Origin: a virus
DNA: 64,000 nt
IMG/VR virus record: IMGVR_UViG_3300031111_000011
Coordinates: 1-64,000 of that record
Strand: one strand, 5' to 3'
Shown here: one piece after another, positions 2,422 to 62,954 of the stretch
Position numbering within the stretch: the first letter of the stretch is position 1
Layout of the letters: every line of letters begins with the position of its first letter
Made by a program: the position numbers and the translations under genes
Notes under the pieces: generated by a model
The model's database searches: none
Seen by the model: only the letters and a program-made list of their open reading frames with translations
Told to the model about the DNA's origin: nothing

Positions 2422-2571
2422 ATGGATAACACCTGCGATCAATGTCTATGCAAGAATTGTGACCATCCGGACTGCCCGTACCCATGCAAGGCGCAGCACT
2501 GCTGCGAAGCACCAGTCACTCGATGCCAGGATCTGGAAGATTATCGAAATGCGAAGGGATACAACAAGTAA
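2422..2571 (+). CDS. Cys-rich mini-protein (49 aa, 8 Cys; zinc-ribbon-like)
   Basis: SD aataggaggtcatcATG; CxxCxxC...C...C motifs. Replaces the mis-framed long ORF 2378-2722. Confidence 0.45.
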   Translation: MDNTCDQCLCKNCDHPDCPYPCKAQHCCEAPVTRCQDLEDYRNAKGYNK

Positions 2572-2572
2572 T

Positions 2573-2722
2573 ATGACGGTACAAGACGCACTCGCCAAAT
2601 TGGAAGAGATCCACAGGCCGAAAGGCGAACCCAAAGAGGTGAAACCGTCCACCTTCCGCAGAACGTGGAATGTGAACGAATACCGACTCAGGAGGATGTC
2701 ATGGAAGAGAGGAAAATCATGA
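2573..2722 (+). CDS. hypothetical small basic protein (49 aa)
   Basis: In-frame ATG 2 nt after previous stop; C-terminal part of listed ORF 2378-2722. Confidence 0.35.
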   Translation: MTVQDALAKLEEIHRPKGEPKEVKPSTFRRTWNVNEYRLRRMSWKRGKS

Positions 2723-3003
2723 GCAATCCCAGACTGAACACTCACCTCAAAGGTGAGGAAAAAATCGGCAATTGCACAGTGAGAATGATCCGCAAAACTG
2801 CGAACGAGCAGACCTACGAGTATGTCATCGAGATCATCGGACCCATGCACGGGATCGGTGACACGTACCAGATGGTCAAGATCCACTTCAAAGCGGAGTG
2901 GGGAAACGTGGAAAGCGGCCAGGATGCAGCCATGGATGCGGCTCGAATGTTCCGGAATCTGCGGGAAAGCAACCTTTCCACATTCACCTTCAATGAATCG
3001 TAA
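2701..3003 (+). CDS. hypothetical protein (100 aa)
   Basis: SD aggaggatgtcATG; alternative ATG at 2719 with ATGA overlap. Confidence 0.5.
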   Translation: MEERKIMSNPRLNTHLKGEEKIGNCTVRMIRKTANEQTYEYVIEIIGPMHGIGDTYQMVKIHFKAEWGNVESGQDAAMDAARMFRNLRESNLSTFTFNES

Positions 3004-3019
3004 CCAGGAGGAGAGCAAC

Positions 3020-3175
3020 ATGAAGACCTACCGCATCAAACACCGTAAAGGCAAGAACACGAATCACTGGGCCATCTGGGAAGTCAAGAAGGGAAACAAG
3101 ACGGGACCGCCCAGGATCGTGGCAACGGGACCGTACAGCGAGGTCTGGGCCAAGTTCCAGGAGATCATCGGCTGA
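3020..3175 (+). CDS. hypothetical small basic protein (51 aa)
   Basis: SD ccaggaggagagcaacATG. Confidence 0.45.
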   Translation: MKTYRIKHRKGKNTNHWAIWEVKKGNKTGPPRIVATGPYSEVWAKFQEIIG

Positions 3176-3255
3176 TTGCCTTACGTCCCCACATGAGCGC
3201 TCAAGCGCTTGTGTGGGGAGGCAAGCCAATCAACACACTAAAAGGGGAGGATTTC

Positions 3256-3429
3256 ATGACGTACTGGAATTGGATGTTGGACCTGATCTTTGATTTCGCA
3301 CCATTTAACCATGATCTGGCTGCTTTTGTCCGGGATCTGGGAATGTCCGCTCAGGTCATGCCATTGCACCGGGATCACCACGAACTGTTCGGGGAAATCG
3401 TGGACAGTTGGCACGGTGACAACCGATAG
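3256..3429 (+). CDS. hypothetical small protein (57 aa)
   Basis: SD aaaggggaggatttcATG inside listed ORF 3193-3429. Confidence 0.45.
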   Translation: MTYWNWMLDLIFDFAPFNHDLAAFVRDLGMSAQVMPLHRDHHELFGEIVDSWHGDNR

Positions 3430-18836: not shown

Positions 18837-19454
18837 GTGAAGCAAGTGCAAGTGCGTATCACGAACGTGGAATTCGGAAAGAATCCCAGAGCGGGTAACC
18901 GTGATGGGGTGTTCGTCCATGCCTGGAATACCCGGCAGGACAAGCAGATCGCTCCAAAGTTCGTGTTCGCCAAACTTCCGAAGGGTGGAGACAATCCTCT
19001 CTACCAGCGGATCAAGAGTGAGTTGAGTGAAGGTGTGGAATGCACCTTTATCCTCGATGACCAGAACTACTGGAACCTGACGGACTTCCAGAATGTCAGT
19101 GGAGGTTCTGGTGGGCAGTCCAGCCCCCCTACTCCTGGTGGAGGAAACAAGACCTCCGGTGGTGGCGGGAAAGGACTGAGTGGGCAGTTCCGTAAGCCTG
19201 AAGAGATCTCTCGTACTGAGTGCCTCGTCATTGCGGAACGGATGGTTGCTAACGCCATGGGGAATGCCGAGCAGTTCGGTAAGGTCTTCAAAAAGACCTT
19301 GACCTTCGATCTGATTCGTTCCGAGGTTCTCTCCACTGCTGGTGAGCTCGTCAAGTTTGTGGAAGGCAAGCTCGACGTCGGTGCCCCCGAAGCATCCACA
19401 GGTGACCTGAATAGCCCTGGAGCCAACGCTCCTGACGACGACATCCCGTACTGA
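18837..19454 (+). CDS. ssb: single-stranded DNA-binding protein (205 aa)
   Basis: OB-fold-like N-terminus, Gly/Ser-rich linker, acidic C-terminal tail DDDIPY (bacterial SSB tails end DDDIPF). Confidence 0.75.
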   Translation: MKQVQVRITNVEFGKNPRAGNRDGVFVHAWNTRQDKQIAPKFVFAKLPKGGDNPLYQRIKSELSEGVECTFILDDQNYWNLTDFQNVSGGSGGQSSPPTPGGGNKTSGGGGKGLSGQFRKPEEISRTECLVIAERMVANAMGNAEQFGKVFKKTLTFDLIRSEVLSTAGELVKFVEGKLDVGAPEASTGDLNSPGANAPDDDIPY

Positions 19455-19642
19455 TGTCATTCACGCAGCTTGCTGCCTGGGTGGGTCTGCTCATTGGAAC
19501 CATCCTTATGTTCGGAGGGGTCATTGCACCCCTCCTGAACGCAACCGTTGATGTTCTTGTGATTGCCGGGATCACTGTCCTGGCTCTCACAGTCTGGGGA
19601 TTCTGCAAACTCGTCGTTCAGATCCTCGACAAACTCTACTAA
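19454..19642 (+). CDS. small membrane protein (62 aa, 2 predicted TM helices)
   Basis: TGATG overlap with ssb; hydrophobic throughout; directly precedes the SPFH gene. Confidence 0.5.
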   Translation: MSFTQLAAWVGLLIGTILMFGGVIAPLLNATVDVLVIAGITVLALTVWGFCKLVVQILDKLY

Positions 19643-19669
19643 TCCAACCAAAAAGGAGGACAACACACT

Positions 19670-20539
19670 ATGAAACGACTTTTTTTGATCGCTCTGACTA
19701 TCCTGATGGCCTTTTCCCTCTCCGCTTGCGGAGTTTCCCACGTCGATCCCAACGAGGAACTCGCCCTGGTGAGCAAACTGGGTGACGGCAAGGGCTCCAT
19801 CCAGGTCTACGGTACCGGGTGGCAGTTTTACAACCCGCTGAAGTGGACCGGCAAGACCTTCTCCCTGGCCCGAACCACCATCAAGTGGGTGACTGAAGAC
19901 CCCAACACCGGTGCTTTCACCTTCAACAGCAGCAAGGGGCTCAAGTTCCAAGTGGATGTCGGGGCTACTGTCCAGATGCGAAAGGGTGCGTCTGCCGAGG
20001 CGTACCGACTCTACAAGAAGGACATCAACGCTGTCCTGAACTCCGACTTCGGGAACAACCTGCGGGAGGCGTTCAACGACGCTGGTTCCCAACGCGCCAC
20101 AGAGGAAATCTACGGCGACAAGAAAGCCTTCGTGGATGCTGTCGAGGAAATCATGCAGAAGCGATTCTCCGTCCTCTTCCAGGACGTGGACATTTTCCTG
20201 CTCAATGACATGATTCTCCCGCCTTCGGTCAAGGCCGGTATCGAGCGTAAGGAAGCCGCCCGTCAGAAAGCCGAGCAGCGAGAGAACGAGATCGCTGAGG
20301 CCACCGCTGACCGGCTGAAGAAACAACAGGCCACCGATGCTGTTGCCTACGAGATCGAGCGCACTGCCCAGGCCAAGGCCAAGGAGATCACCTCCATTGC
20401 CGAAGCTGAGGCGAAAGCCATCATGCTGAAACGGGCTCAGATCACCCCTGAATACGTCGAGTACGTCAAGGTCAACGGATGGGACGGCAAGCTTCCCCAG
20501 GTCACGGGAGGCGCTGGCACCCTGATCGACTTGCGGTAA
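19670..20539 (+). CDS. SPFH/band-7 (HflK/HflC/prohibitin-like) lipoprotein (289 aa)
   Basis: Lipobox LSAC after a signal peptide; coiled-coil region QRENEIAEA...AKAKEITSIAEAEAKAI typical of SPFH proteins. Confidence 0.7.
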   Translation: MKRLFLIALTILMAFSLSACGVSHVDPNEELALVSKLGDGKGSIQVYGTGWQFYNPLKWTGKTFSLARTTIKWVTEDPNTGAFTFNSSKGLKFQVDVGATVQMRKGASAEAYRLYKKDINAVLNSDFGNNLREAFNDAGSQRATEEIYGDKKAFVDAVEEIMQKRFSVLFQDVDIFLLNDMILPPSVKAGIERKEAARQKAEQRENEIAEATADRLKKQQATDAVAYEIERTAQAKAKEITSIAEAEAKAIMLKRAQITPEYVEYVKVNGWDGKLPQVTGGAGTLIDLR

Positions 20540-20548: not shown

Positions 20549-20578
20549 GGGGAGGGGGAATCTGCCCCCCTCCCCTTC
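20549..20578 (+). terminator. terminator-like hairpin GGGGAGGGGG-aatct-gCCCCCCTCCCC
   Basis: 10-bp perfect GC stem after the SPFH gene; weak T-tract (ttctg). Confidence 0.5.
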
Positions 20579-26422: not shown

Positions 26423-26438
26423 TTCTCAATATTGAAAA
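26423..26438. promoter_or_regulatory. palindromic element TTCTCA-atat-TGAAAA (family copy 6)
   Basis: Directly upstream of SD aaaaggagg of rtcB. Confidence 0.45.
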
Positions 26439-26446
26439 GGAGGACT

Positions 26447-27661
26447 ATGGAAAAGGTCATGTTTTCATCAGGCAGAATCCCTGCCTACTCATGGTTACCA
26501 GTGGACAAACTGGAGGAAGGCGCTCTGGAACAGATCCAGGCTTGCACTGCCCACCCCAAGGCTTACCACCACATGGCTGTGATGCCCGACTGTCACCAGG
26601 GATATGGGATGCCCATTGGCGGTGTGGTTGCCCTGGACGGCGCAATCAGCCCCAACATGGTGGGGGTGGACATCGGCTGTGGGATGAGTGTGGTCCGCAC
26701 CAACGCCAAATTCGTTCACACTTATCAAATCAAGGAAATCCTGAACCGACTCAAGACCATGGTTCCTGTCGGTGAGGGGAAGTTTCGATCTGACCCCGTC
26801 TCCTGGCCCAAGTGGGTGGAGTATCTGGACAAGGTCAAGGAGCGTCCTGACTGGATGAAGGGCTCTAACTGGCATCGGTTCAAGTGCAGCATGGGAACTC
26901 TGGGAGGTGGGAACCACTTTCTGGAGCTTCAGCGGGATGAAGAGGGTTACCTCTACATGATGCTCCACTCCGGTTCCCGTGGCCTGGGGTACGCCATTGC
27001 CAAGTACTACAACGAACTGGCCCAGACCTACTGCGTCAACCTAGACATCCCCAACAAAGATCTGGCTTACCTGCCGACCGATCACAAGTGGGGGCAAGCC
27101 TACATCCGGGACATGAACTTCGCCCTGGCTTTTGCCAAGGAAAACCGCAGGGTCATGATGGATGCCTTCAAATTCGCTTTCTTCCACGTTCTTGGATCTC
27201 CTGTCCGGGAGGACATTGATGTTGTCGATGAGATCGACATCCACCACAACTACGCGGCATTGGAGCACCACTTCGGCAAGGATCTGTGGGTTCACCGGAA
27301 AGGCGCGACTTCGGCCCAGTCTGGACAACTGGGGATCATTCCCGGTTCCATGGGAACCCACTCCTACGTCGTCGCTGGTAAGGGGAACCCGGACTCCTTC
27401 AAGTCCTGCTCCCACGGTGCTGGTCGAGTGAAGGGTCGGATGGCCGCTACTCGTGAACTCGACCGGATGGAGCAGGAGAGGAAGATGGACGGCATTGTCT
27501 TTGACGGGTTCAAAACCCTGAAGAAGGGTAAGCTGAAAGGTGCGTATGACCTGGGCGAAGCCCCTGATGCCTACAAAAATATTGATACTGTCATGTGGCA
27601 CCAGGGGGATCTGGTGGACGTGGTAGTAAAACTCAAACCGATAGGAGTCTTGAAAGGGTGA
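26447..27661 (+). CDS. rtcB: RNA-splicing ligase RtcB (3'-phosphate/5'-OH RNA ligase, 404 aa)
   Basis: RtcB signatures HMAVMPDCHQGYG, GGNHFLELQ, MLHSGSRGLG, CSHGAGR; ATG 4 nt after SD. Confidence 0.9.
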   Translation: MEKVMFSSGRIPAYSWLPVDKLEEGALEQIQACTAHPKAYHHMAVMPDCHQGYGMPIGGVVALDGAISPNMVGVDIGCGMSVVRTNAKFVHTYQIKEILNRLKTMVPVGEGKFRSDPVSWPKWVEYLDKVKERPDWMKGSNWHRFKCSMGTLGGGNHFLELQRDEEGYLYMMLHSGSRGLGYAIAKYYNELAQTYCVNLDIPNKDLAYLPTDHKWGQAYIRDMNFALAFAKENRRVMMDAFKFAFFHVLGSPVREDIDVVDEIDIHHNYAALEHHFGKDLWVHRKGATSAQSGQLGIIPGSMGTHSYVVAGKGNPDSFKSCSHGAGRVKGRMAATRELDRMEQERKMDGIVFDGFKTLKKGKLKGAYDLGEAPDAYKNIDTVMWHQGDLVDVVVKLKPIGVLKG

Positions 27662-28638: not shown

Positions 28639-28937
28639 AGCTGATCTGCTGTCCCTCTTGTTGGGACGTGTTCAAACTCGCCAAGGAAGAGCGCACCTGC
28701 TCATGCGGACGGTGCTCAGGCAGGTACCTCAACAACACCTACGCCGAGACAAATGGTGAGGGAATCAACCTCGCCATTGGCAACGGGTCACTCCTGCAAG
28801 CGGCTTACAACCTCGACCACTTTGCGAAGGACGCAGAGCGTCACGAGTTCATCGACCACAACCCCGTGATCTGTTGGGTCCGTCCTCCAGAAGGACCGGG
28901 AAACCCACACACCACTGTACGAAAGGAGGAATCATGA
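28635..28937 (+). CDS. Cys-rich protein (100 aa)
   Basis: ATGA overlap; CCPSC...CSCGRC cluster. Confidence 0.5.
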   Translation: MKLICCPSCWDVFKLAKEERTCSCGRCSGRYLNNTYAETNGEGINLAIGNGSLLQAAYNLDHFAKDAERHEFIDHNPVICWVRPPEGPGNPHTTVRKEES

Positions 28938-30322
28938 ACCCCATTCTGAATACTGACTCTTACAAAGCGAGTCATTACAGGCAGTACCCTGAAGATGTGG
29001 CCTGGGTGAGTTCCTATATCGAAGCACGGGGTGGAAAATACCCTGAGACGGTTTTCTTCGGGCTGCAAGCCTTCCTGAAGGAGTACCTAAGCAAACCCTT
29101 CACCCAGGCTCATATCAATGAGGCAGAGGACTTCTGGGAGGCTCACGGCCTCCCGTTCAATCGGGGAGGGTGGGAATACATCCTCGCCAGATACCGGGGC
29201 TATATGCCTATTTTGATCCAGGCGGTGGATGAGGGCTCGGTGGTTCCCACTGGCAATGTTCTTGTTCAGATTATTAACACTGACCCTGAAGTTCCCTGGA
29301 TCACCAGCTACGTGGAAACCGCTCTGCTCCGGGCAATCTGGTACCCCACCACGGTGGCTACCCTTTCCCACTTCTGCAAGCGAGATCTCTACAACTACTG
29401 GAAGGAGTCGAGTGACGCTCCTATTGAGTCCCTGGACTTCAAACTTCACGACTTCGGTGCTCGTGGGGTGAGTTCCCTGGAATCTGCTGGACTGGGTGGG
29501 ATGGCCCACCTCGTCAACTTCAAAGGCACCGATACGGTGGAAGGGGTTCTCGCTGCAAGACGGTACTACAACGAGCCCATGGCAGGATACTCAATCCCTG
29601 CTGCCGAGCACTCCACCATCTGCTCCTGGGGCGGTCCAGGACGAGAAATGGATGCCTTCCGAAACATGATCAGCCAGTTCGGTGGAGACTATCCACTGAT
29701 CGCTGTGGTCAGCGATTCGTACAATATCTGGGACGCAGTGGATAACAAATGGCCTTACCTGGATACCGAGATCAGTGCCAGTGGGTCCACCATCGTGGTC
29801 CGTCCGGACAGTGGAGATCCCCACATCGTACCTGTCGAGGTGATCAGCCGTCTCATGCAGAAGTTCGGATTCACGGTCAATAGCAAGGGCTACCACGTCC
29901 TTCCGGATCGAATTCGAGTTATCCAAGGCGACGGGATTACCGGCGATAGCCTGAATCGCATCCTGTTCAACCTCCGGATGAAGCGTCTCAGCATCGACAA
30001 TATTGCCTTTGGTATGGGTGGTGGGCTGCTCCAGCAGATCAACCGGGATACCTGCAAGTTCGCCATGAAGTGCAGTGCGGTTGCTGGCAAGAGCAACCAA
30101 TGGCAACCGGTGTTCAAGCAACCTGTGGATCAGCCTGACAAGGTGAGCAAAAAGGGTCGGCTGAACCTGATCCGGAACTCGGATGGTGAGTTCGAGACGG
30201 TCCCGGAGAAGTGGGAAGAGTCGCGGGGGGTTATGCCCATCCGGAGCATTAACGGGCTCCGCTACCACACCACAACTTTCGAGGAAATCCGGGGACGGGT
30301 CCAGGAGCACCTCATTGCTTAG
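28934..30322 (+). CDS. nadV: nicotinamide phosphoribosyltransferase (NAMPT/NadV, 462 aa)
   Basis: MNPILNTDSYKASHYRQYPE N-terminus and overall length typical of NAMPT; SD aaaggaggaatcATG. Confidence 0.85.
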   Translation: MNPILNTDSYKASHYRQYPEDVAWVSSYIEARGGKYPETVFFGLQAFLKEYLSKPFTQAHINEAEDFWEAHGLPFNRGGWEYILARYRGYMPILIQAVDEGSVVPTGNVLVQIINTDPEVPWITSYVETALLRAIWYPTTVATLSHFCKRDLYNYWKESSDAPIESLDFKLHDFGARGVSSLESAGLGGMAHLVNFKGTDTVEGVLAARRYYNEPMAGYSIPAAEHSTICSWGGPGREMDAFRNMISQFGGDYPLIAVVSDSYNIWDAVDNKWPYLDTEISASGSTIVVRPDSGDPHIVPVEVISRLMQKFGFTVNSKGYHVLPDRIRVIQGDGITGDSLNRILFNLRMKRLSIDNIAFGMGGGLLQQINRDTCKFAMKCSAVAGKSNQWQPVFKQPVDQPDKVSKKGRLNLIRNSDGEFETVPEKWEESRGVMPIRSINGLRYHTTTFEEIRGRVQEHLIA

Positions 30323-30821
30323 AGTCGGAGTCTTTGTTGGCAGATGCCAACCTTTCCACAAGGGGCATGAGCAGATCATCCGTCAGATGCTCCATGAACG
30401 TGGAACAGAGCGGTGTGTCATTCTCTTGGGGAGCATCAATGCTCCCCTTTCCGCTAAGAACCCTTTCCCCTACCCCACTCGTTATCAGTGGGTGAAGAAC
30501 ACCTTCCAGTATGTCCATGTCTTGGGCATTCCGGACTTCCCCGACAATGATGACTACTGGCTCTTCCATATCATGCAAGTTCTCAAGCTCCCTTACGTGG
30601 AGAGTGTTGACCCTTATTTCTACGTAGGCAGTGAGAGAGACGGTCGGGTCTACCACGAGCGTGGATTCACAACCATGATCGTTCCGCGCAGTAAGCAGTA
30701 CAGTGGGACTGAGATCCGAAGACGGCTTGCAGCCGGTGAGGACTTCAGTGAATTGGTGAGCGACCCTGAGTACGCTCAGTCAGTGAAGAGTGTGTGGGAC
30801 ACTGTGAAACATGCAATTTGA
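30315..30821 (+). CDS. nicotinamide/nicotinate mononucleotide adenylyltransferase (NMNAT, NadM-like, 168 aa, TTG start)
   Basis: Nucleotidyltransferase (H/T)xGH motif VGVFVGRCQPFHKGH; size fits archaeal/phage-type NMNAT; only in-frame start preserving the motif is TTG 30315 overlapping the nadV stop. Confidence 0.7.
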   Translation: MLRVGVFVGRCQPFHKGHEQIIRQMLHERGTERCVILLGSINAPLSAKNPFPYPTRYQWVKNTFQYVHVLGIPDFPDNDDYWLFHIMQVLKLPYVESVDPYFYVGSERDGRVYHERGFTTMIVPRSKQYSGTEIRRRLAAGEDFSELVSDPEYAQSVKSVWDTVKHAI

Positions 30822-34420: not shown

Positions 34421-34648
34421 TTAGTGGATGGGGTCACCAAGGAACACGTAGAAGGGCAAACCACAATGCTTACACCACGCATCCATGCCCCACGAACCAT
34501 CACCAAGTTCCCGGTACTCACCGACTTCAGTGATCATCTCAGAGCACTGGATGCACTCGATCTCGATGGATGCAACGGACATGTCGTCGGACATGTCCAC
34601 AGTCCCAATTTCCTGGCCGACCACATTAAGAGCTTTGTATTTTGTCAT
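34421..34648 (-). CDS. small Cys-containing protein coupled to integrase (75 aa)
   Basis: ATG overlaps the integrase stop (ATGA); CIQC...CKHC. Confidence 0.45.
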   Translation of the reverse strand: MTKYKALNVVGQEIGTVDMSDDMSVASIEIECIQCSEMITEVGEYRELGDGSWGMDAWCKHCGLPFYVFLGDPIH

Positions 34649-35940
34649 TAGCCCACCTTTCCGAAGAGGGGAATCACCTGGGCTGTCTTGGGTGCGTGGA
34701 CCCCGTCATCCTCCCAAGGATGGAACTGAGCAGCCCACTCATCGATGAGCCTCTTCCCCTCCTCCTTGAGGGTCTTCTCAAAGTGGATGTAGTCCTGGGT
34801 GATCAGTGCTCCCATCTGGATTGGGTCACCCTTCTTCTGGATCGTATGAGAGAGCATCACACTCACCAGACGTTCGTTCCCAGACACCTCATAGAGTTTG
34901 GTAGCCAGAGTGTGTCGGAACTTGTGGAAGGATTCACTCTCCTTCCTACTCTTGCCCTTCTGGACCCCAAACAACAGTTCCCTGGCCTGATTGATTGGTC
35001 GTCGAGAGTGCCATTTGAACCGGAACACCTTACCAGTGTATTTGGCCGATCCGTGTTTTTTGGACTGTACCAATTTAATAGCGTCCTTGACGATCTCAGG
35101 CATGTAGAACCATGCCCACTTCCCGTCATTCGGACCCTTTCGCAGGAACTTGAGGGTTCCTTCCTTCCAGTCGATCCGGTCCCACCACACTCCCACATCC
35201 TTCTTATGGTTCCCGTTCCCAGTGAGTTCATGGACTCGGAACCCCATGAAGAAGCCCAGGCAGACCTGGGCGTAAGCTTCGGCCCATCGGAGTCCATCCA
35301 CCCCCTCAGTTTGTCTGTACAGGAACCGTAGCAGCTTGGCTACTTCCTCATCCGTGAACGTCCGGACATCCTCCATCAATTCCTCCTCAGTAGGTTCGGT
35401 GCTGACAGGTTTGACCAGATCAGCCGGGTTAGCCCCGGCGTACAGACCCTCCCCAAGGGCAAACTTGTACAGGTTCCGGATCGTGCTGATGAAGGCGTTG
35501 ATCGTGGTCGGTGCGTAGTGCCCCTCCTTGACCAAAGCCCTCTGAAACACCCGGAGCTTGCCTGGGGTGATTGCCGCCAGGGGCTCATGTGCGAACCATT
35601 TCTTAAACCGCTGGTTGTACTTGGATTGGTAGTTCGGCACAGCCGATGCTCCCACCTTTTCCATGTGCTCCAGCCACAACTTGTACGCCCGACTGAAAGT
35701 GATCGCTTCGAGCTTGTCCGGGATGGCCTGTCCCAGTTTGAGCTTCTGAAGCATCTTATTCCGCTCCTCCTCAGCGATCTGAAGGGAGAATCCGTTGTCC
35801 TCCCTGCCCACCTGGAACCGCTTGTTCTTACCATCCACCTTCACCATGAAGCTGAAGGTCTTGCCATCCCTGCCGTGGTAGGTGTAACAGCCCCGGTGCC
35901 GCTTGCTTGCTACGTGTGTCCCGATTTTCCCCTTTGCCAT
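34648..35940 (-). CDS. int: tyrosine-type site-specific integrase (431 aa from SD-supported start)
   Basis: C-terminal catalytic motifs R...HKFRHTLAT...LSHT...Y; start set at MAKGK with SD aaaggaggtagaATG (listed ORF extends 23 codons further upstream without an SD). Confidence 0.85.
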   Translation of the reverse strand: MAKGKIGTHVASKRHRGCYTYHGRDGKTFSFMVKVDGKNKRFQVGREDNGFSLQIAEEERNKMLQKLKLGQAIPDKLEAITFSRAYKLWLEHMEKVGASAVPNYQSKYNQRFKKWFAHEPLAAITPGKLRVFQRALVKEGHYAPTTINAFISTIRNLYKFALGEGLYAGANPADLVKPVSTEPTEEELMEDVRTFTDEEVAKLLRFLYRQTEGVDGLRWAEAYAQVCLGFFMGFRVHELTGNGNHKKDVGVWWDRIDWKEGTLKFLRKGPNDGKWAWFYMPEIVKDAIKLVQSKKHGSAKYTGKVFRFKWHSRRPINQARELLFGVQKGKSRKESESFHKFRHTLATKLYEVSGNERLVSVMLSHTIQKKGDPIQMGALITQDYIHFEKTLKEEGKRLIDEWAAQFHPWEDDGVHAPKTAQVIPLFGKVG

Positions 35941-36107
35941 TCTACCTCCTTTCGTGGGGTAACAAACCCCGGTTTGATTGTGACTTTCTTGTGACTTTTG
36001 GCCCGTCATGACTTACTGCAATAATTCAATTTTTCAAGTCTGGGCAAATATAACAACTCCGCAAACCTTTGTCAATAGCGAACTTCTCGTGTGTTATCAG
36101 TACCTTC

Positions 36108-36587: not shown

Positions 36588-36997
36588 TACACCCCCTTCT
36601 TGAGCGCCATGAAGTCAGCGATCTTGCGGTAACCGAAAGCAGATCCTACGGCGATGCCGAGCATCCATTGGTACCACTGTGGGCAGGTAGCCAGGGCAGC
36701 AAACCCGACTGTGACCCACCCTGCTCCGGTTGGAAAGAAACAGAGGATGGCAGGAATCGAAAGGACAATGGTAAACCATTCATCCTTCCACCCGCTCTGG
36801 TTGATGGAGGTGTTCTCCCAGGCGATGTCCCCCTGCTGTTGGGTGAGCATCTTATTAATGGTAGCTTCGGTTTTCGCCTCAGTCACCTTGACCTTGGATT
36901 CAACCTCCACCTCTTTGATACGTTGCCGATGTCGGAACCAATCTGTGACGGGGGCCATCAGACCCCCGACCAGATCACCAAGGATCTTACCGACCAC
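36587..36997 (-). CDS. putative holin/membrane protein (136 aa, C-terminal TM helices)
   Basis: Hydrophobic segments FTIVLSIPAILCFF, WVTVGFAALATC, MLGIAVGSAFGY; last of the structural cluster. Confidence 0.5.
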   Translation of the reverse strand: MVGKILGDLVGGLMAPVTDWFRHRQRIKEVEVESKVKVTEAKTEATINKMLTQQQGDIAWENTSINQSGWKDEWFTIVLSIPAILCFFPTGAGWVTVGFAALATCPQWYQWMLGIAVGSAFGYRKIADFMALKKGV

Positions 36998-39900
36998 TTC
37001 GTGACTCCTTCATAGTTTCCTTGATGATGTCGTGACGCTCCAGGATTAACAGGTCGATCTCTTCCCGCTTCTCCTGGGCAGTCATATCCTCATCAAGTTG
37101 GATAGCATCGATTTCCTTATTGATGGCTCTCACCTGTTTCATTGAGGCATTCATCAGTGGTCGGAGTTCGATCTTATCCTGGTTGTTGTCATAGTAGTTG
37201 TCAGCTTCAAGATCATCCTTTGCACTCCAAGATCTGAACGCTGTGTCTACCTCGGCAGCGAGGTCGTAGAACCGTTCGTAGTGCTTGGTGTACCCAGGAG
37301 TGTCGTGTCGCATCATTCCACCATTGAGCAGGTAGTAGTCCTCTTTTACGAGGGCTGGATCGGTTGGGAAGGACATCAGGTGCGGCATCACAATGTGGTC
37401 CGTCAGGGTGAGAGCGAGACGACCCACTGTTGCGAATTGGCTGTTGATGAAGTGGTCAAGGCGCTGTGGTGAAATAAACCCAGTGAGTTTACCAATGCCA
37501 CGAGCGGTCTTGCTGGTGCGGTGAGTCCACTGCATGTCAGGGTCAAGACTCTGTTTGCTCCGACTTACAATAGGAGCCCCCGTGTACCCGTCCTCACCCC
37601 CTTCACCGTCAGTCTGGGCCAGGACTTCCTCCATGAGAGGAGGAAAGCCAACTGCGAAGGTTTCCCGGAGGGTCTTCCAGGCAAACTTACCGACACTACC
37701 GTACTCACCTTCCTGCCAAGCTTCTGCCATGGCAGTTGGGAGTCCACTGAAGATCGCGCCTACCTCGAAAGGCATCGGGATCTGGAAGCGTTCTCCAAAG
37801 GCGTAGACATGGTAGTATCCCCACTTCTGGTGATACGGCAGATCACGATACTTGACCTTACGGTCTTCATCGTCATCGTGTGCCGTGTTCCATGCGTGGA
37901 GTGCCAGGGTCAGAGCCGAGAGCATTGCCCCTTTGTAGAGGATCTGCTTGCGGATCATCCCCAGAGCCCGTTTATCTTTACGGGCTTCACGAGCAAGTTT
38001 GTACAGACCCTGGATTCGAGCGTTGAGGAATGGGACCGTTCTTGTGAATACAGCAACGAATCCACTCTCTCCGCTCAGTCCGAAGTCCAGGATGTCCTTC
38101 GCTTCGAAAGCAGCCTCGAAGGAACTCTTGCCTTGAGCTTTTGTATTCTGGTAGAGGGCAACTCGCGTTGCCGACTCACTGAGCTCCATGAGCTTGCCCA
38201 GTTTACCTTCGCCCTTCATTGCCTTCTTGATTGCCTTCTGAGCACCCAGTGGATTGTCCGCACGGTAGTACCCACCAGAGAACCCACCACCCTGACTCAT
38301 CATCTCGACAACGTCTGGATGATTCCGCAGAGTAGCCCACATCCCCTTAGCCGTATCCACAACAGGAATGAACCCGTCCTTCATCACACCGGTAGCCATG
38401 GTGTCCCTGGTCATGTTTCGAACATGGAACCACGGGTTAGCGGTCACACCAAAGGTGAGCCCTCGCTTGAGTCCACCCATGATCTGGAAGACGGTGTTGT
38501 TCAGCCCCTTATGGTTAAGCTCCGTGAGAGCCTGGAACACATCGTTATCCTCGACCTTATAATACCGGGCCTTACCATCCACCCGAATCGAAATCAGATC
38601 GTTGCGTTTGGCAAGATCCTTCGGGTTACCCAGTACCCTGGTCATGAATGCCGATGTCCCCTTCTTCTCGCTCACCATGCCATTGGCTTTCAGTGAGTTG
38701 TAGAGCTTCTTGCGGGAGATGTTCTTGAGACTCTGGTCGATCAGGTACGTGTAGTTCATGACGAGATTCTCGATAGGATCACCGATCATCCCTTCCTTTT
38801 CACCTTCCTTGAGAGCCTTCACCGTACCCACGAACTTGTCGAGGGCTGTCGGTGCTTGGCTACCAAAGACCCCCTCTTCCTCCAGGTCGAAGACCCGGTT
38901 CAGAGGAATGTACACGTCCTTACGCCATGCCTTTTCCCATTCAGGATTCCAGATACCCGCCTTCCGGCAGAACTCTTTTACCGATTCATTATACTCCTTC
39001 AGGTGAGCCTTGACTTTGTCGTACTCACCGGCCTTGAGTTGATTATCAGCAGCCGCTCTGAGCTTTGCGATCTCAGCGTCAGTGTCGATGCCTTTACCAA
39101 AGATCCCGTCAGCAAACTCGCTACCTTTGACCCGTTTCAGTTCATCCACGGTGTCGGCAACAAGCCGAGCTTTGACGGCTTTCATGGTCTGGGCATCCAT
39201 ACCTTCAAACACACTGAGGAGCCCCTTCGAAGCATCCGGACGAGTAATGACCCAGTGGGTTGCCTTGTTGTACATTGGCTTGCCATGATGCAGGATCGTA
39301 CCCATGATTGCTGGCATCGATTGATGGAGACGACGGGACATGTACGCCGACATCTCAGCACCAACCCCAAGCTTCTCTTCGAGGGTCTTGAGCTTCCGGA
39401 ACCGGTCAACGCCCGTCAGGATTGTCCACTCCTTGAAGGCAGTGGCTGTGTCCACGGGATGACTCACTCCATCCAGGATCTTGGCAGCAGCACCCTTGAT
39501 GGTGTCCATCTTGGTTTTCCCCTCGCTCAGAGCGAGGTTCTTGGTAGCCTCATCCAGATCACGGGCCTTAGAATACTTACCCTTGATCCCTCGATCTTCA
39601 AGATGCTTGCGGTAAAGCTTATCCAACTCACTCTGGTCGCTGTAGAGCTTCTCAGGCAGGTTGAACTTCTTATGGAGTTGACCAATAGGGTCACCACCCG
39701 CCTCTCGTTTGAGGTATTCAAGCGGAGTCAGACCATCATGTTTCCATGGATTTCCTTTCACCTTAGTAGATCGGTGTTCAGTAAGGCCGTACTCGAAGTC
39801 GTATTTAAAGTCCTCCAGCGTTTTTCCTTGGGCTTCGGCAACGACCTTCATCCAGATAGCAGCCTGAACCTCTCTCGGGGACCACTCGTGATCAGTCTCC

Positions 39901-42900
39901 TCGCTGAGTTCATGAGCAAGTTGAAACAGCTTACGACGAGAAGCAGTATGCTCATCAGCCAGGAAGTTGGAGTCCAGAGTGGCAATCTCGAAGTTATGAG
40001 GAGCCTCTTCACCGTCCTTGAGAAGCCCTGCGTCCTTCCGCTCTCTGTACTCAGTCACCTCATTCCTGCTCTTGATGGCTGCGCGTACATTGGAAGCTGA
40101 GAGCAGAACGTGGCCGAAAAAGGCCCGATGCATCCACATATCATTCGTGGTTGCCTCAGTGTCACCTGTGAGAGCCCGGATAAACTCATCGACCTTATAA
40201 TTCTTGCTGAACGTCAGGTCGCCTGACAGAATCCGATCAAGGGCTTTCTTAACATTGGATGGGTATTTGCCTCCTGGTTTGTCACGCTTACCCATAAGGT
40301 AGAGGTACGTGTCCACCGCAAACTGGGTGTTGGTAGTAGCCTTCGCGTTAGGCGAAGTGAGCCCAAGGAGAATGTTGAAGAGAGGGGCATCCTTACCGAA
40401 GACCCTCTTAACTGTCTCCTGGTGGTTACTATACCATGTGACGGCTCGTGGGTTCTCCACGAGAACCTGCTTACACCAGTCCTTGTACTCTTTGTCAGTG
40501 TGTTTAAACTCACTCCACTCTCGCATATCCTTATGGATCAGCCGGTTCTTAGCAACCTCAAGGAGGTTGTCGATGTCCTTCATAGTAAGGGACACTTTGT
40601 CATCCGAGAACCCCATCACCTTTTTCAGCCATGCGTTCATGAACTCAAGGAACTTCTGGAAAACTTGCTTGCGCTTCATCGGGTTAAGTTTTTCGGCCCG
40701 ACGAGCGATCACCTCTTCGACAATGAGTCGGCGTTTCTCGATCTCCTTCTGTTCAGGAGTGAGGTCTTTCCGACCAGCGATATTCTTAAGGTCATCAGCA
40801 TAGAGATCCTTGACCTCCGCGTAAGCCTTCTTGGATTTCCTGATAGCAACATAAGCGCTGTCAAGGAACTCCTTGAAGAGTTTACCCGCCTCGTCCTTGG
40901 TGCTGCGAGTGTCAAACAGCTTGAGAAGCCCCCGGTGACCCACTTGCTCGTGGAGCCACACTTGGGTTGCACGTTTGGTGTCAGACAGACTGTCGGCCAC
41001 AAAGTAGATCTTGTCGGCCTCTTCATCCCACACTGCTTCCACACGGACCCCATTATTGGTGTCCTCTTTGGAGAGACGGTGCTTCTCAGGAAGCTGGTCA
41101 TGAGACTCAACCAATTCAATCTTGGCACCGCGACTACCCACCAGCTTCTGGAGTGTGTGGAGCTTGTCAAAGATCTGCTTTGAGGACTCTTTCTTGAGTT
41201 TACTCCGAGCCATCTTAGCAGCCTTGCTGTAACGAGGATTCCCTTCCTCGTCGTACTTCAGAGGGGTCTTCCTGTCGTTTGTCCCTTCAGGAGCAACATT
41301 CCCCGAACTATCCTCTTCGTAGGTCACACCTTCCTTGAGATCGTGTTTGACTTTAACCTTGCCCGATCCCTCGTACTTCTTCCTACCCCACTCCCTAAGA
41401 GGTTTCTCCTCAACCTCCCAGGTTCCATCAGCCTGTTCCACTGGCTGGTGCGTAAGTGGGTCTTCAAATTTCCGGATAGCTCGTTTGGCTGCTTCCTTGT
41501 TCTTATAGACCTTGCCTACGGTCTTGCTGACCGTAGGGGCTGGTTCGGATGTGACATTCGACGGAACATTTTCAACCTGCTTAGACTTCGGAGTGAGGAT
41601 TTCCTTGGTCTTGTCACCCAGGCCGAGCTCCATGTTGGCTTTCTCAGCCAGAGCCTCAGCGTCAGCTTTACGTTGAGCATCGACCTTCCTGCTTTCCTCA
41701 GCGGCTTTCCGTTTTTCAACAGCAGCTACCTGGGAAGGATGGAGGGCTGGTTTCGCCTCAAGCTTTGCGCCTTCTTTTTGGAAGAAGGCAGCATCGCTCT
41801 TGGCCTTCTGATCCACGACCTTGGCTTGTTGACTTTGTTGTTCTGCCTCGATGCCAGAGCGCACCTCTCCCGCCATCTGGGATTTCTGGACAGATCGTTT
41901 TTGCTCACTTGCCCGTTTAGTAGTCGCTGCTTTCTCAGCGATCTCAGCACGGGCTTTCTCGTTGGCACGAGCTTCACGTTCAGCCTTCCCTCGTGTCGTA
42001 GAAGGGTTCCCAGGTTGTTTACTTGCTTCCTTACGCGCCTGTTCCTGACGAGCTTGAACCTCAAGACGATCCACTTGCTCTTCGAGACGTTGGGCAAGAC
42101 CATCTGTGAGGACACCCATCCGAGGATCTCCAGTGGATGCTTTGAGAGCACTCAGGTCGTACATGACTCCCTTGAGTTTTGGGATACTCTCCTCACCAAC
42201 CACGAGAGCCCGGTGAGCAGCACGGAGAGACTTGGCAGCAGCCTTGTGCTCCTTAACCTCACTACCTTCCAGAGCGGGGAGCATGTTGTGGACAGCACCC
42301 ATCAGCCCTTTCGGAGTAGACACAAAGTCAACGAACTGCTGGAACTTATCTCGTTCCGCAGCAGCAGCGTCCATCTGAGCTTCACGGTTCGCACGTTGAA
42401 GTTGCTCCTCCTGCATACGAGCCTCAGCAGCCATGGTCGCTTCGATCTGGCGCTGACGATCACGAGCAGTCTGTTGACGGGCTACCTCAGCCTCTGCTTG
42501 GAGTTGTTCCTTGGTTTTCGCCTCGACCTTTTCTTCAGTAGATCCTCCAACACTGAAGGCTCCAGCGTCCTCCTCGACCTTGATTCCACCTTGGTCATCA
42601 TCCTTAGCAAAAGCCGTATCCAAATCTTCAGGAACTGAAGGCGCAGTTGTCTTGTTGGTTTCCGCATCAGCATTGGTTTCACCCTCCGCATCTGCTTCGG
42701 TTTGTTTCTTTGCCTTGACATGGGCGATGACATCGAATGGAGCTTTCACAGCAACACCGGCACCTGGGAGAAGCATACCGCCCACTGCACCGATCTTCAT
42801 GCTCTCGTTCCGGGAAGCTTTGAACTCCTCAGAACCTACCACCTCTTTGAAATCGTCAATGAGTTCCCCAACAGGAGCATCAGGGTTGGCCGCATACACA

Positions 42901-43694
42901 TCAGCAGCAGCCTCAGTGTACGCCTGGATTCCTTCTTCAAGACCCTCTCCAGCAGCACCTTGCATAAGCTTGCCGATGTAGAGCTTGAGCTTGTCACCCA
43001 TTTTCAGGGATTTTCCGAAGGCTCCTGCGACACGCTTCAGTGAGTTGATTTGGAGAAGGTTCCCGGCCATTTCAGCAGGGGTTCCAAGGGCAGCGTGAAT
43101 CAGAGCAGCATTGAACCGCACGTCCTCATCCTCGATCCCCTTGTCAATGAGATCCTTGTCCTTTTCCCCCATCATCTGCATGAAGGTAGTGGCTGTTCCG
43201 ACTGGAGCACTGAGTGCAGACGCAACCATAGAGGCACCATAGCGGCTCAGGCCAACACCAGCTTCTTCGATGGTTCCGAGAATGGTCCCTTTTTTGGAAG
43301 GGTCCATTTCATCCACTTTGTCTGGAAGGGCTTCTTCTACAGAGCCAATGTCCTCAACAGCTTGTTTACGCTTTGCTGTGTGTGGGTCATCCTGCGCAGC
43401 TTCAGCGGATCGCTTACGCATCTGAGCAAGATATCCACCGGAATTTAGTTCGACAGGCTTACCATCAAGGGTCCGATCCTGGAGCACCTTTGTGCCGTGG
43501 ATTGCATCTGAAAGGCCAACCCCAAGGGATTGGCCCATTCGTTTCAGGGCACCTGAGTGTTCTTCTTCGGGTTCGGATGTATTGAGTTGCTCGATCTCAG
43601 ACTCATCCACGTCCTCGATCACAAAGGTTTGTGTTTTTGGTTTTTCAGCTTCAAACTCGTCTTGATCGATATCCTCAATAATGAACTTTGCCAC
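36987..43694 (-). CDS. giant internal virion/ejection protein (2235 aa), T7 gp16-like position
   Basis: Acidic N-terminus, glycine-zipper-like hydrophobic patch, long coiled coils; follows two gp14/gp15-like proteins. Confidence 0.7.
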   Translation of the reverse strand: MAKFIIEDIDQDEFEAEKPKTQTFVIEDVDESEIEQLNTSEPEEEHSGALKRMGQSLGVGLSDAIHGTKVLQDRTLDGKPVELNSGGYLAQMRKRSAEAAQDDPHTAKRKQAVEDIGSVEEALPDKVDEMDPSKKGTILGTIEEAGVGLSRYGASMVASALSAPVGTATTFMQMMGEKDKDLIDKGIEDEDVRFNAALIHAALGTPAEMAGNLLQINSLKRVAGAFGKSLKMGDKLKLYIGKLMQGAAGEGLEEGIQAYTEAAADVYAANPDAPVGELIDDFKEVVGSEEFKASRNESMKIGAVGGMLLPGAGVAVKAPFDVIAHVKAKKQTEADAEGETNADAETNKTTAPSVPEDLDTAFAKDDDQGGIKVEEDAGAFSVGGSTEEKVEAKTKEQLQAEAEVARQQTARDRQRQIEATMAAEARMQEEQLQRANREAQMDAAAAERDKFQQFVDFVSTPKGLMGAVHNMLPALEGSEVKEHKAAAKSLRAAHRALVVGEESIPKLKGVMYDLSALKASTGDPRMGVLTDGLAQRLEEQVDRLEVQARQEQARKEASKQPGNPSTTRGKAEREARANEKARAEIAEKAATTKRASEQKRSVQKSQMAGEVRSGIEAEQQSQQAKVVDQKAKSDAAFFQKEGAKLEAKPALHPSQVAAVEKRKAAEESRKVDAQRKADAEALAEKANMELGLGDKTKEILTPKSKQVENVPSNVTSEPAPTVSKTVGKVYKNKEAAKRAIRKFEDPLTHQPVEQADGTWEVEEKPLREWGRKKYEGSGKVKVKHDLKEGVTYEEDSSGNVAPEGTNDRKTPLKYDEEGNPRYSKAAKMARSKLKKESSKQIFDKLHTLQKLVGSRGAKIELVESHDQLPEKHRLSKEDTNNGVRVEAVWDEEADKIYFVADSLSDTKRATQVWLHEQVGHRGLLKLFDTRSTKDEAGKLFKEFLDSAYVAIRKSKKAYAEVKDLYADDLKNIAGRKDLTPEQKEIEKRRLIVEEVIARRAEKLNPMKRKQVFQKFLEFMNAWLKKVMGFSDDKVSLTMKDIDNLLEVAKNRLIHKDMREWSEFKHTDKEYKDWCKQVLVENPRAVTWYSNHQETVKRVFGKDAPLFNILLGLTSPNAKATTNTQFAVDTYLYLMGKRDKPGGKYPSNVKKALDRILSGDLTFSKNYKVDEFIRALTGDTEATTNDMWMHRAFFGHVLLSASNVRAAIKSRNEVTEYRERKDAGLLKDGEEAPHNFEIATLDSNFLADEHTASRRKLFQLAHELSEETDHEWSPREVQAAIWMKVVAEAQGKTLEDFKYDFEYGLTEHRSTKVKGNPWKHDGLTPLEYLKREAGGDPIGQLHKKFNLPEKLYSDQSELDKLYRKHLEDRGIKGKYSKARDLDEATKNLALSEGKTKMDTIKGAAAKILDGVSHPVDTATAFKEWTILTGVDRFRKLKTLEEKLGVGAEMSAYMSRRLHQSMPAIMGTILHHGKPMYNKATHWVITRPDASKGLLSVFEGMDAQTMKAVKARLVADTVDELKRVKGSEFADGIFGKGIDTDAEIAKLRAAADNQLKAGEYDKVKAHLKEYNESVKEFCRKAGIWNPEWEKAWRKDVYIPLNRVFDLEEEGVFGSQAPTALDKFVGTVKALKEGEKEGMIGDPIENLVMNYTYLIDQSLKNISRKKLYNSLKANGMVSEKKGTSAFMTRVLGNPKDLAKRNDLISIRVDGKARYYKVEDNDVFQALTELNHKGLNNTVFQIMGGLKRGLTFGVTANPWFHVRNMTRDTMATGVMKDGFIPVVDTAKGMWATLRNHPDVVEMMSQGGGFSGGYYRADNPLGAQKAIKKAMKGEGKLGKLMELSESATRVALYQNTKAQGKSSFEAAFEAKDILDFGLSGESGFVAVFTRTVPFLNARIQGLYKLAREARKDKRALGMIRKQILYKGAMLSALTLALHAWNTAHDDDEDRKVKYRDLPYHQKWGYYHVYAFGERFQIPMPFEVGAIFSGLPTAMAEAWQEGEYGSVGKFAWKTLRETFAVGFPPLMEEVLAQTDGEGGEDGYTGAPIVSRSKQSLDPDMQWTHRTSKTARGIGKLTGFISPQRLDHFINSQFATVGRLALTLTDHIVMPHLMSFPTDPALVKEDYYLLNGGMMRHDTPGYTKHYERFYDLAAEVDTAFRSWSAKDDLEADNYYDNNQDKIELRPLMNASMKQVRAINKEIDAIQLDEDMTAQEKREEIDLLILERHDIIKETMKESRSGR

Positions 43695-62076: not shown

Positions 62077-62151
62077 TGGAAGGGGCAGAAGGAATCGAAC
62101 CTTCCTGCACAGGTTCAAAGCCTGTTGGTTAAGCCGCTCACCCATACCCCT
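62077..62151 (-). tRNA. tRNA-Gln(TTG)
   Basis: 7-bp acceptor AGGGGTA/TGCCCCT, T-arm GGTTCGATTCC, anticodon loop CTTTGAA, CCA encoded. Confidence 0.7.
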
Positions 62152-62157
62152 ATAAGC

Positions 62158-62232
62158 TGGTCAGGGATGCTGGAATCGAACCAGCCGCCCCAAGCTTCCA
62201 AAGCCCAGGAGACTCCTTGCCGTTATCCCTGA
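62158..62232 (-). tRNA. tRNA-like gene, anticodon uncertain (possibly Pro-TGG); irregular stems
   Basis: Good acceptor TCAGGGA/TCCCTGA and T-arm GCTGG-TTCGATT-CCAGC, but D and anticodon arms pair only with several G-U wobbles; possible pseudo-tRNA. Confidence 0.4.
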
Positions 62233-62243
62233 TGATTTGCAGA

Positions 62244-62318
62244 TGGCTCCAGAACCTGGACTCGAACCAGGATTTCAACGGTTAACAGCCGCGCGTGTTA
62301 CCTTGACACTATTCTGGA
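62244..62318 (-). tRNA. tRNA-Asn(GTT)
   Basis: Acceptor TCCAGAA/TTCTGGA, D-arm GTGT-CAAGGTA-ACAC, anticodon loop CTGTTAA, T-arm CCTGG-TTCGAGT-CCAGG, CCA. Confidence 0.7.
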
Positions 62319-62329
62319 GTGAGGAGAGA

Positions 62330-62406
62330 TGGTTGGAGCGAGAGGATTCGAACCCCCACTTAACGGGTTAAAAGCCCGTTGTGCTAACCGTTGACACTAC
62401 GCTCCA
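62330..62406 (-). tRNA. tRNA-Lys(TTT)
   Basis: Acceptor TGGAGCG/CGCTCCA, anticodon arm ACGGG-CTTTTAA-CCCGT, T-arm GGGGG-TTCGAAT-CCTCT. Confidence 0.75.
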
Positions 62407-62416
62407 ACAAAAAAGA

Positions 62417-62492
62417 TGGTCGCACCACCAGGACTCAAACCTGGGTCTGTCGCTTATCAGGCAACTGTTCTAATCTGTTGAACTATGGTGCA
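62417..62492 (-). tRNA. tRNA-Ile(GAT)
   Basis: D-arm GTTC...GAAC, anticodon arm GTTGC-CTGATAA-GCGAC, T-arm CCAGG-TTTGAGT-CCTGG. Confidence 0.75.
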
Positions 62493-62495
62493 ATG

Positions 62496-62569
62496 TGGCA
62501 CCCCGCTAAGGAATCGAACCCTACCAATGCACCGGGTTGGAACCGGGCCGCACCCATGTGCTGCGAGGT
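62496..62569 (-). tRNA. atypical tRNA (possible Trp-CCA) with truncated D-arm
   Basis: Acceptor ACCTCGC/GCGGGGT (1 G-U), T-arm TAGGG-TTCGATT-CCTTA, candidate anticodon loop TTCCAAC; D-region only CAC-ATGG-GTG. Confidence 0.4.
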
Positions 62570-62583
62570 GTGAGATGTAGAAA

Positions 62584-62659: not shown

Positions 62660-62696
62660 AGTTGGACCACTCACTAAGAGTGGCTCACCCCACGAA

Positions 62697-62796: not shown

Positions 62797-62808
62797 ATCG
62801 ATATTTGT

Positions 62809-62883: not shown

Positions 62884-62954
62884 ATGTGCCGGTGGCAGTG
62901 ATTAACGACCTTTGCTCTTATCATCGGGACGGTCATGCGAGGACCGGCAGAAAA

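Follow-up and report, generated by a model that had tools for sequence, protein, structure and literature searches.

A two-gene module lies at positions 19454-20539 (plus strand) of the viral record IMGVR_UViG_3300031111_000011 (IMG/VR), of which positions 1 to 64,000 were analysed here (hereafter the window, 64,000 nt). It encodes a 62-aa protein with two predicted transmembrane (TM) segments followed by a 289-aa lipoprotein of the SPFH (prohibitin-like) superfamily. Our results indicate that this pair is a divergent addition to a known and widespread phage module, that of gp19 and gp20 of phage N4. The new elements are that the hairpin partner is defined as a family, that it strictly adjoins SPFH genes, and that natural fusions of the two exist. 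The elements of the module in the window are as follows.

19454-19642 (+): two-TM hairpin partner of 62 aa, N4 gp19 / PHROG 1130 type (hydropathy, leave-one-out profile)
19654-19659 (+): Shine-Dalgarno sequence AGGAGG, 10 nt before the ATG of the SPFH gene and inside the 27-nt spacer (sequence)
19670-20539 (+): SPFH (prohibitin-like) lipoprotein of 289 aa, N4 gp20 / PHROG 200 type (Pfam, PHROG, AlphaFold2, Foldseek)
19670-19729 (+): lipoprotein signal peptide MKRLFLIALTILMAFSLSA followed by the predicted lipidated Cys20, lipobox LSAC (sequence)
19751-20308 (+): SPFH1/SPFH2 core, residues 28-213, beta-rich and then alpha/beta in the AlphaFold2 model (Pfam envelope)
20222-20440 (+): 73-residue helix, residues 185-257, equivalent to the CC1 wall helix of SPFH cages, with a short helix (residues 260-270) after it (DSSP on the AlphaFold2 model)
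20480-20497 (+): W-D-G-K-L-P motif after the second helix and just before the C-terminal tail, invariant or nearly so in two family alignments

The larger open reading frame (ORF) matched Pfam PF01145 (Band_7/SPFH) over residues 28-213 with an E value of 2e-17 (64.3 bits; cut-off 23.6), and it matched PHROG 200, annotated as 'lipoprotein', over its full length (residues 1-286, E 4.9e-44). A single-sequence search of the PDB with the protein alone gave a spurious match only. A profile built from 25 family members detected solved structures of prohibitin-1 (1e-7), QmcA (1e-6), HflK (2e-4) and HflC (4e-4), with the prohibitin-1 match covering chiefly SPFH2 and CC1 and aligning the long helix of the phage protein with the helical region of prohibitin-1. 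The protein was further modelled as a monomer with AlphaFold2 from an alignment of 34 homologues, which yielded a predicted local distance difference test (pLDDT) score of 86.5. In this model, DSSP placed the beta-rich SPFH1 first and the alpha/beta SPFH2 after it, and the chain then runs through the unbroken helix of 73 residues and a second, short helix into a disordered tail. Foldseek searches aligned the model over approximately 260-320 columns with all classes of cage-forming SPFH proteins, including erlin1/2, HflC (7vhq), QmcA (8z5g), PHB1/2 (8rrh), stomatin and flotillin (probability 1.00 for these) and the major vault protein. Pfam, the family profile and Foldseek therefore agree on the SPFH domain that an initial annotation, made from the bare sequence, had proposed. 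The product of the large gene is a complete SPFH protein, with an SPFH1/2 core, a long wall helix, a short second helix and a WDGKLP tail.

The N-terminus of this protein, MKRLFLIALTILMAFSLSAC, comprises a charged n-region (MKR), a stretch of 14 hydrophobic residues and the lipobox L-S-A-C, whose Cys20 is encoded by nt 19727-19729. The lipobox had also been read in the initial annotation, and it is a property of the family, since 90% or more of the 34 aligned SPFH homologues have Cys in this column. The lipobox of the window protein conforms to the pattern [LVI][ASTVI][GAS]C. A lipobox-like motif was found in 81 of 120 SPFH homologues, and 27 of the 120 carry an uncleavable hydrophobic anchor instead. 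In addition, a scan of NCBIfam revealed weak similarity of the N-terminus to a lipoprotein signal model. By the textbook features of signal peptide and lipobox, the gene product is a bacterial lipoprotein, with lipidation predicted. At the other end of the protein, WDGKLP is the most conserved motif of the SPFH family, and its use as a search pattern retrieved 423 viral and 447 bacterial relatives. Judging from its position, the motif may serve in closing or oligomerizing the top of a cage. The complete architecture together with this invariant motif suggests that the SPFH protein would assemble into a ring or cage.

The smaller ORF contains two hydrophobic stretches, TM1 at about residues 5-27 and TM2 at about residues 33-55, which are connected by the turn N-A-T-V-D, predicted to be periplasmic. 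The 62-aa peptide scored 30.9 bits against a profile of the partner ORFs of other phages from which its own contig had been left out, which supports that this ORF is a real gene. PHROG 1130 ('membrane protein') was matched by 17 of 21 aligned partner ORFs, and the window peptide alone was below the threshold for this family (E<=0.01). In the three closest metagenomic relatives (L001-L003), whose SPFH proteins share 36-45% identity with that of the window, an ORF of 67-72 aa is located directly upstream of the SPFH gene. The pair is also present in ProddE, a virulent-type T7-like Desulfovibrio phage, and in Ostro, a temperate Pseudomonas phage. The SPFH-adjacent ORFs of these five and the window peptide have in common the turn motif P-x-L-[ILV]-S-[AS]-x-[DSN], to which APLLNATVD corresponds in the window. 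The small two-TM partner seen in the initial annotation is thus borne out as a conserved companion of SPFH genes.

The extent of this companionship was determined with a partner profile that was started from these ORFs and iterated over the six-frame ORFs of 80 viral (IMG/VR) and 80 bacterial loci, which had been retrieved with the SPFH alignment. All 82 matches were on the same strand as the SPFH gene and no more than 383 nt away from it, mostly directly upstream and in a few cases directly downstream, and no match was found elsewhere in the flanks of these loci. A partner-profile match was present in 43 of the 80 viral and 32 of the 80 bacterial loci. When other adjacent small TM ORFs are counted as well, the numbers are 57 of 80 and 58 of 80, respectively, against a background in which 7-14% of the other small ORFs contain a TM segment. 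Moreover, a leave-one-out profile matched N4 gp19 with 35.9 bits and gp28 of the Klebsiella phage Pylas with 46.9 bits, and the iterated profile matched with 45.3 bits an unannotated ORF of phage phiP27 whose end coincides with the start of the SPFH gene; none of these three sequences had been used in building the profile. A search for a conserved third gene around the pair gave an antisense-ORF artefact only.

In four bacterial loci, the hairpin, the anchor and the SPFH domain are fused in frame. These are L088 (5476-6846), L089 (4070-5149), L095 (5572-6603, identical to P0060, a single 330-aa protein) and L133 (5722-6849), and their sources are Bacteroidales (L089), Eubacteriaceae (L095), Doudnabacteria (L133) and an unclassified metagenome-assembled genome. 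The fusions argue for a physical association of the two proteins. Their topology makes sense only with an N-in/C-in hairpin and an SPFH domain on the outer side of the cytoplasmic membrane. Such a placement of the SPFH domain is also suggested by the uncleavable anchors in 27 of the 120 homologues mentioned above, by the occurrence of the module in contigs of Firmicutes and the candidate phyla radiation, which have no outer membrane, and by the topology that the annotators of Pylas gave for the hairpin homologue ('2 TMDs N in C in'). In the sequences surveyed, the hairpin family was confined to the immediate neighbourhood of SPFH genes, with occasional fusions to these.

Several observations were made at these loci in passing. 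SPFH genes lacking the hairpin partner are often accompanied by other small membrane proteins, such as a one-TM protein with a coiled coil (MDWFKKHVDTVIILTAF...) in several viral contigs and an 84-aa protein with a TM segment and a zinc ribbon in Gemmatimonadota. Loci with alternative small membrane ORFs are L027, L031, L035, L042, L007/L011, L030, L039 and L045, as well as L116-L123. In phiP27 (L169, AJ298298), the hairpin ORF (2256-2501) is unannotated and the SPFH gene (2501-3328) is labelled 'putative serine protease', and the SPFH homologues of Stx2a phages and of a Klebsiella prophage are likewise annotated as 'serine protease'. These labels on phage SPFH genes are probably legacy mis-annotations.

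The N4-type pairs resemble the pair in the window in several respects. N4 gp19/gp20 and Pylas gp28/gp29 have the same gene order, with a two-TM protein of 61-68 aa followed by an SPFH lipoprotein of 278-286 aa, and they share the tight coupling, the turn motif (LPSMVSALDS in N4) and the lipobox. The C-terminal motif W-[DN]-G-x-LP is also common to all of them, reading WNGTLP in N4, WNGALP in Pylas and WDGKLP in the family of the window. The SPFH protein of the window is approximately 26% identical to N4 gp20 (tblastn E 9e-13). The two systems differ in that N4 gp19 (68 aa) and gp20 overlap by 8 nt, whereas a 27-nt spacer separates the two genes in the window, and in their neighbours, since the N4 pair follows RNAP2 and gp17-18 and the window pair follows a DNA polymerase, a PHROG 6721 gene and a 205-aa ORFan. 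The gp19/gp20 of phage Mu, which also appeared in the literature, are unrelated to N4 gp19/gp20, the shared numbering being a coincidence.

SPFH homologues were detected by tblastn in 354 of 50,697 phage records, all with less than 60% identity. Carriers of virulent type include N4 and N4-like, LUZ24-like, Vi01-like, rV5-like, FelixO1-like and T4-like phages, and temperate carriers include Ostro, phiE125, phiP27, Stx2a phages and SSU5; crAss-like phages and Lak megaphages are further carriers. The carriers thus comprise virulent as well as temperate phages, which makes a role specific to lysogeny unlikely, and the bias of the lysis-lysogeny decision that had been suggested from the sequence is accordingly an unlikely core role for a module shared by N4, LUZ24-, Vi01-, FelixO1- and T4-like phages. 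SPFH domains in T4-like phages were noted as early as 2006. A paper of 2023 put forward an HflC/lysogeny idea for the Burkholderia phage CSP3 without data (PMC10269572), and according to a paper of 2026 the reason why a phage genome holds an SPFH lipoprotein 'remains unclear'. A Vi01-like SPFH protein appears with few spectra in a proteomics table, and a survey of SPFH proteins in P. aeruginosa does not mention phages (PMC13086221).

Among cellular SPFH systems, HflK/HflC resemble the phage protein in their SPFH1/2 and coiled-coil organization, in their extracytoplasmic position on the inner membrane and in a cage-forming fold, the latter two being predicted for the phage protein. However, HflK and HflC are two paralogues with N-terminal TM (type II) anchors, whereas the phage has one SPFH gene, a lipid anchor and an extra hairpin partner, and no second SPFH gene was found by profile in the window. 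The identity of the phage protein to HflK/HflC is approximately 15-17%, and neither HflK/HflC nor prohibitin models were among its NCBIfam matches at E<=0.1. The protein is therefore no HflK/HflC orthologue, and the 'HflK/C-like' label given to it initially is better replaced: because the profile found in prohibitin-1 the best match of known structure, the family is prohibitin-like, and by these profile comparisons it is nearer to prohibitin than to HflK/C. GenBank annotators place the homologues of ProddE, Ostro and IAS virus in the prohibitin family (bacterial cd03401). The prohibitins PHB1/PHB2 have the topology that is predicted for the phage protein, in which the SPFH domain faces away from the cytoplasm or matrix; unlike the phage pair, they are hetero-oligomers with N-terminal anchors and no hairpin partner.

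In QmcA-YbbJ, an SPFH-NfeD system (8z5g), an SPFH gene also stands beside that of a small membrane partner, and QmcA was a top structural and profile match of the phage protein. In contrast to the phage pair, QmcA is TM-anchored, and its partner carries an NfeD oligonucleotide/oligosaccharide-binding (OB) fold and is unrelated in sequence to the hairpin. QmcA faces the cytoplasm. The initial annotation had likened the small protein to an NfeD-type partner. No Pfam family, including NfeD (PF01957), was matched by the window peptide or 20 of its relatives, no relative of the hairpin family was found among PDB structures, and the two TM helices fill the 62 residues, leaving no room for an OB-fold. 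Operon logic like that of qmcA-ybbJ and the place of QmcA among the best structural matches would speak for a minimal NfeD acting as YbbJ does with QmcA; in view of the above, such a pairing is extremely improbable, and membership of the small protein in the NfeD family is refuted.

On the basis of these comparisons, we tentatively propose, as a plausible reading that falls short of being probable, that the pair is an N4 gp19/gp20-type module in which an extracytoplasmic SPFH cage and its hairpins tune an inner-membrane client, with FtsH as the leading candidate. The hairpin would span the cytoplasmic membrane with both termini inside (N-in/C-in) and expose its conserved polar turn of five residues at the outer surface. 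The SPFH protein would be exported and anchored by its lipid in the outer leaflet of this membrane. There it would oligomerize into a domed cage like those of prohibitin and HflKC, and hairpin partners may be attached around the rim of the cage like a fence, at a ratio of roughly 1:1. Made alongside the replication genes during infection, such a cage would enclose a patch of the inner membrane and could sequester or tune a host client residing in it. If the client is the FtsH protease, the turnover of membrane and regulatory proteins would be altered during infection.

FtsH is put forward as leading candidate, by analogy, because HflK/C and PHB1/2, the nearest characterized relatives with such a topology, work with FtsH-family proteases. 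HflK/C, anchored in the inner membrane, form a periplasmic cage that engages the periplasmic domains of FtsH, and PHB1/2 interacts with matrix AAA proteases (PMC12624060). The module of Ostro and phiP27 is situated in an operon that runs from the repressor side to xis/int. At the corresponding operon position, lambda carries the FtsH inhibitor gene cIII. This placement is compatible, again by analogy, with the FtsH/lysogeny idea for temperate hosts. Any likeness to lambda CIII would be confined to function, namely a change in FtsH activity brought about by a phage protein made early, since CIII is a 54-aa cytoplasmic amphipathic peptide acting as a competitive FtsH substrate and has no structural relation to the module.

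Several points weigh against this proposal. The link to FtsH is one of analogy alone, and SPFH cages serve a wide range of unrelated clients, such as channels, the IP3 receptor and respiratory enzymes. The identity of the phage protein to HflK/C and prohibitin in the Foldseek alignments is only about 13-18%. The glycine at position +2 would direct the lipoprotein to the outer membrane under an E. coli-type Lol rule, which may not be the rule of this host. No partner-profile match was obtained in 37 of the 80 viral and 48 of the 80 bacterial loci, many of which have other small membrane ORFs, and our literature search returned no functional study of, or experiment on, any phage member. A broader version, which we consider doubtful, holds that the pair represents a distinct and hitherto undescribed two-component SPFH system, apart from HflK/C and SPFH-NfeD, that builds extracytoplasmic phage nanocages capturing a host inner-membrane machine such as FtsH. 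In this version, the system would be widespread among phages and bacteria, sometimes as one fused polypeptide, and phages would use it to reprogram membrane-protein turnover.

A role in superinfection exclusion, in which the hairpin and the periplasmic SPFH lipoprotein, produced early in infection, alter the surface of the inner membrane and thereby block the DNA or ejection proteins of later phages, is rather unlikely, even though a number of features would fit it. T4 Imm/Sp, T5 Llp and P22 SieA exemplify known exclusion systems, which rely on a small inner-membrane protein, a lipoprotein or both, and the pair itself consists of small envelope proteins carried by virulent and temperate phages alike. 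In the window the pair is surrounded by replication genes, and in N4 it separates RNAP2 from downstream genes, positions that are consistent with pre-late expression, and the lack of a conserved third gene suggests a mobile accessory cassette, as many exclusion genes are. However, the SPFH fold is absent from known exclusion proteins, in Ostro and phiP27 the module belongs to the early lytic operon and does not follow a promoter active in the prophage, and homologous pairs also occur in bacterial contigs, whose prophage context was not checked. The module might alternatively maintain the membrane or time lysis, with the cage stabilizing the energized inner membrane over a prolonged infection of high yield, or restraining holins, and so delaying premature lysis or abortive depolarization. 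SPFH proteins are general membrane organizers, HflKC contributes to tolerance of aminoglycosides and oxidative stress according to one report (PMC10434171), and the module is common in virulent phages with large bursts (N4-, Vi01-, rV5-, T4- and crAss-like phages and Lak phages), of which N4 displays lysis inhibition. Nevertheless, the lysis cassette of N4 is gp60-63, to which a recent dissection of N4 lysis attributes the lysis and lysis-inhibition phenotypes without any mention of gp19/gp20. The rapid-lysis mutations reported so far all map to membrane proteins of this cassette, among them the endolysin gp61 and the pinholin gp63, and no lysis gene adjoins the module in the window. We therefore regard this explanation as unlikely.

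The size of the 62-aa protein and its two-TM N-in/C-in topology are reminiscent of a pinholin, and the downstream gene encodes a lipoprotein with a long helix, so that the pair could be read as a class II holin or pinholin with a spanin-like or antiholin component. Such a reading is hardly credible: the pair belongs to the replication cluster and is distant from endolysin-like genes, its SPFH fold differs from spanins, N4 has a separate and experimentally defined set of holin, pinholin and spanins, and the hairpin family is also found in bacterial chromosomal contigs. A holin role was rejected on gene neighbourhood, the SPFH fold and the separate lysis set of N4.

Hundreds of phage genomes, that of the model phage N4 among them, carry an annotated SPFH lipoprotein to which no function has been assigned. 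The dedicated and sometimes fused hairpin partner turns what was a lone 'lipoprotein' label into a defined two-component module, which is tractable in N4, where gp19/gp20 are open to deletion and pull-down. If the client of the proposed cage is indeed FtsH or another core membrane machine, the module would represent a new viral takeover of bacterial membrane-protein quality control.

Two further features flank the module in the window.

18837-19454 (+): 205-aa ORFan, the 'ssb' of the initial annotation (sequence; homology searches empty)
20549-20575 (+): GC-rich hairpin of 10 bp without a T-run, 10 nt past the stop codon of the SPFH gene (RNA fold)

The stop codon of the 205-aa ORF overlaps the ATG of the hairpin gene in the sequence TGATG (nt 19452-19456), which indicates that the module is probably translated within the same operon. 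This is the overlap that the initial annotation had assigned to the SPFH gene and its small partner; in fact it joins the 205-aa ORF and the hairpin gene, and the SPFH gene stands behind the 27-nt spacer. The same annotation placed the module directly after ssb. An ORF does adjoin it upstream, but its identity as ssb is not demonstrable. The 205-aa ORF has no Pfam, PHROG or NCBIfam match and no tblastn match in the 50,697 phage records, and a search of 5.8 billion proteins returned only itself. Its sole SSB-like features are a Gly-rich linker and the C-terminal tip DDDIPY. The tip of bacterial SSB reads DDDIPF. An AlphaFold2 single-sequence model reached a pLDDT of 45.9 and was unusable for fold search; it shows, with low confidence, a beta1-3/alpha/beta4-5 order in the N-terminal part. 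The ORFan may represent a new SSB, or else it may mimic the SSB tip and thereby recruit host proteins that interact with SSB. Downstream of the module, the RNA hairpin has a folding energy of -27.4 kcal/mol (z -2.97), which was equalled by 2 of 200 shuffled sequences, and it was not called in a terminator scan. It is possibly a transcript end or an RNA-stability element. The defence models of PADLOC detected nothing for the 205-aa ORF, the hairpin or the SPFH protein.

The window appears to correspond to nearly the whole phage genome, with a uniform GC content of about 0.52, and an identical SPFH protein is present on contigs of 67.1 kb. The plus strand encodes a primase, a helicase, a deoxyribonucleotidase-like protein, DNA polymerase A, the PHROG 6721 gene, the ORFan and the module, together with an exonuclease, endonuclease I, a dUTPase, a class II-like ribonucleotide reductase, RtcB, a nicotinamide phosphoribosyltransferase (NAMPT) and a ligase. 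The module thus resides inside the replication cluster, with the DNA polymerase, the ORFan, the exonuclease and endonuclease I as its neighbours. The minus strand carries the structural and packaging genes and the tRNA genes, and the following ORF is located at the strand switch.

34648-36009 (-): tyrosine-recombinase-like ORF of 453 aa (Pfam, motifs)

This ORF matched Phage_int_SAM_1 with 30 bits, above the cut-off, and Phage_integrase with 24.6 bits, just below it. It contains the motifs RVHEL, HKFRH and DYIH, and its best phage matches are annotated integrases with about 22% identity. Because of this integrase-like ORF at the strand switch, the phage may be temperate, although neither an attP site nor a repressor was identified. 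The temperate lifestyle assumed in the initial annotation therefore has some basis in the sequence of the window. A purely lytic phage, as first concluded from 30 ORFs scanned against PHROG, was withdrawn when a Pfam scan of the other ORFs found the integrase-like gene.

The DNA polymerase of the window is nearest to those of HMO-2011, ICP2 and Methylophilales phages (about 30-35%). An assignment to the N4-like phages was rejected, as the 2235-aa ORF of the window (36987-43694, minus strand) has no detectable similarity to an N4-type virion RNA polymerase. This ORF contains an LPD38 domain, and its C-terminal third resembles large proteins of podophages of Vibrio, Aeromonas, Escherichia and Bacillus. 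Three auxiliary genes on the plus strand encode an RtcB-type RNA ligase (26432-27661; PHROG 1075, E 1.6e-114), the NAMPT (28874-30322; E 7e-150) and a cytidylyl/adenylyltransferase-like ORF (30183-30821), which together suggest NAD salvage plus tRNA repair. On the minus strand, a 978-aa ORF (57109-60045) without a PHROG match contains a divergent InlB B-repeat (Flg_new_2) domain and is possibly a tail or receptor-binding component. Finally, 12 tRNA genes are located at one genome end (62077-63735, minus strand), comprising those for Gln, Asn, Lys, Ile, Val, Thr, Ala and Asp and two each for Arg and Gly.

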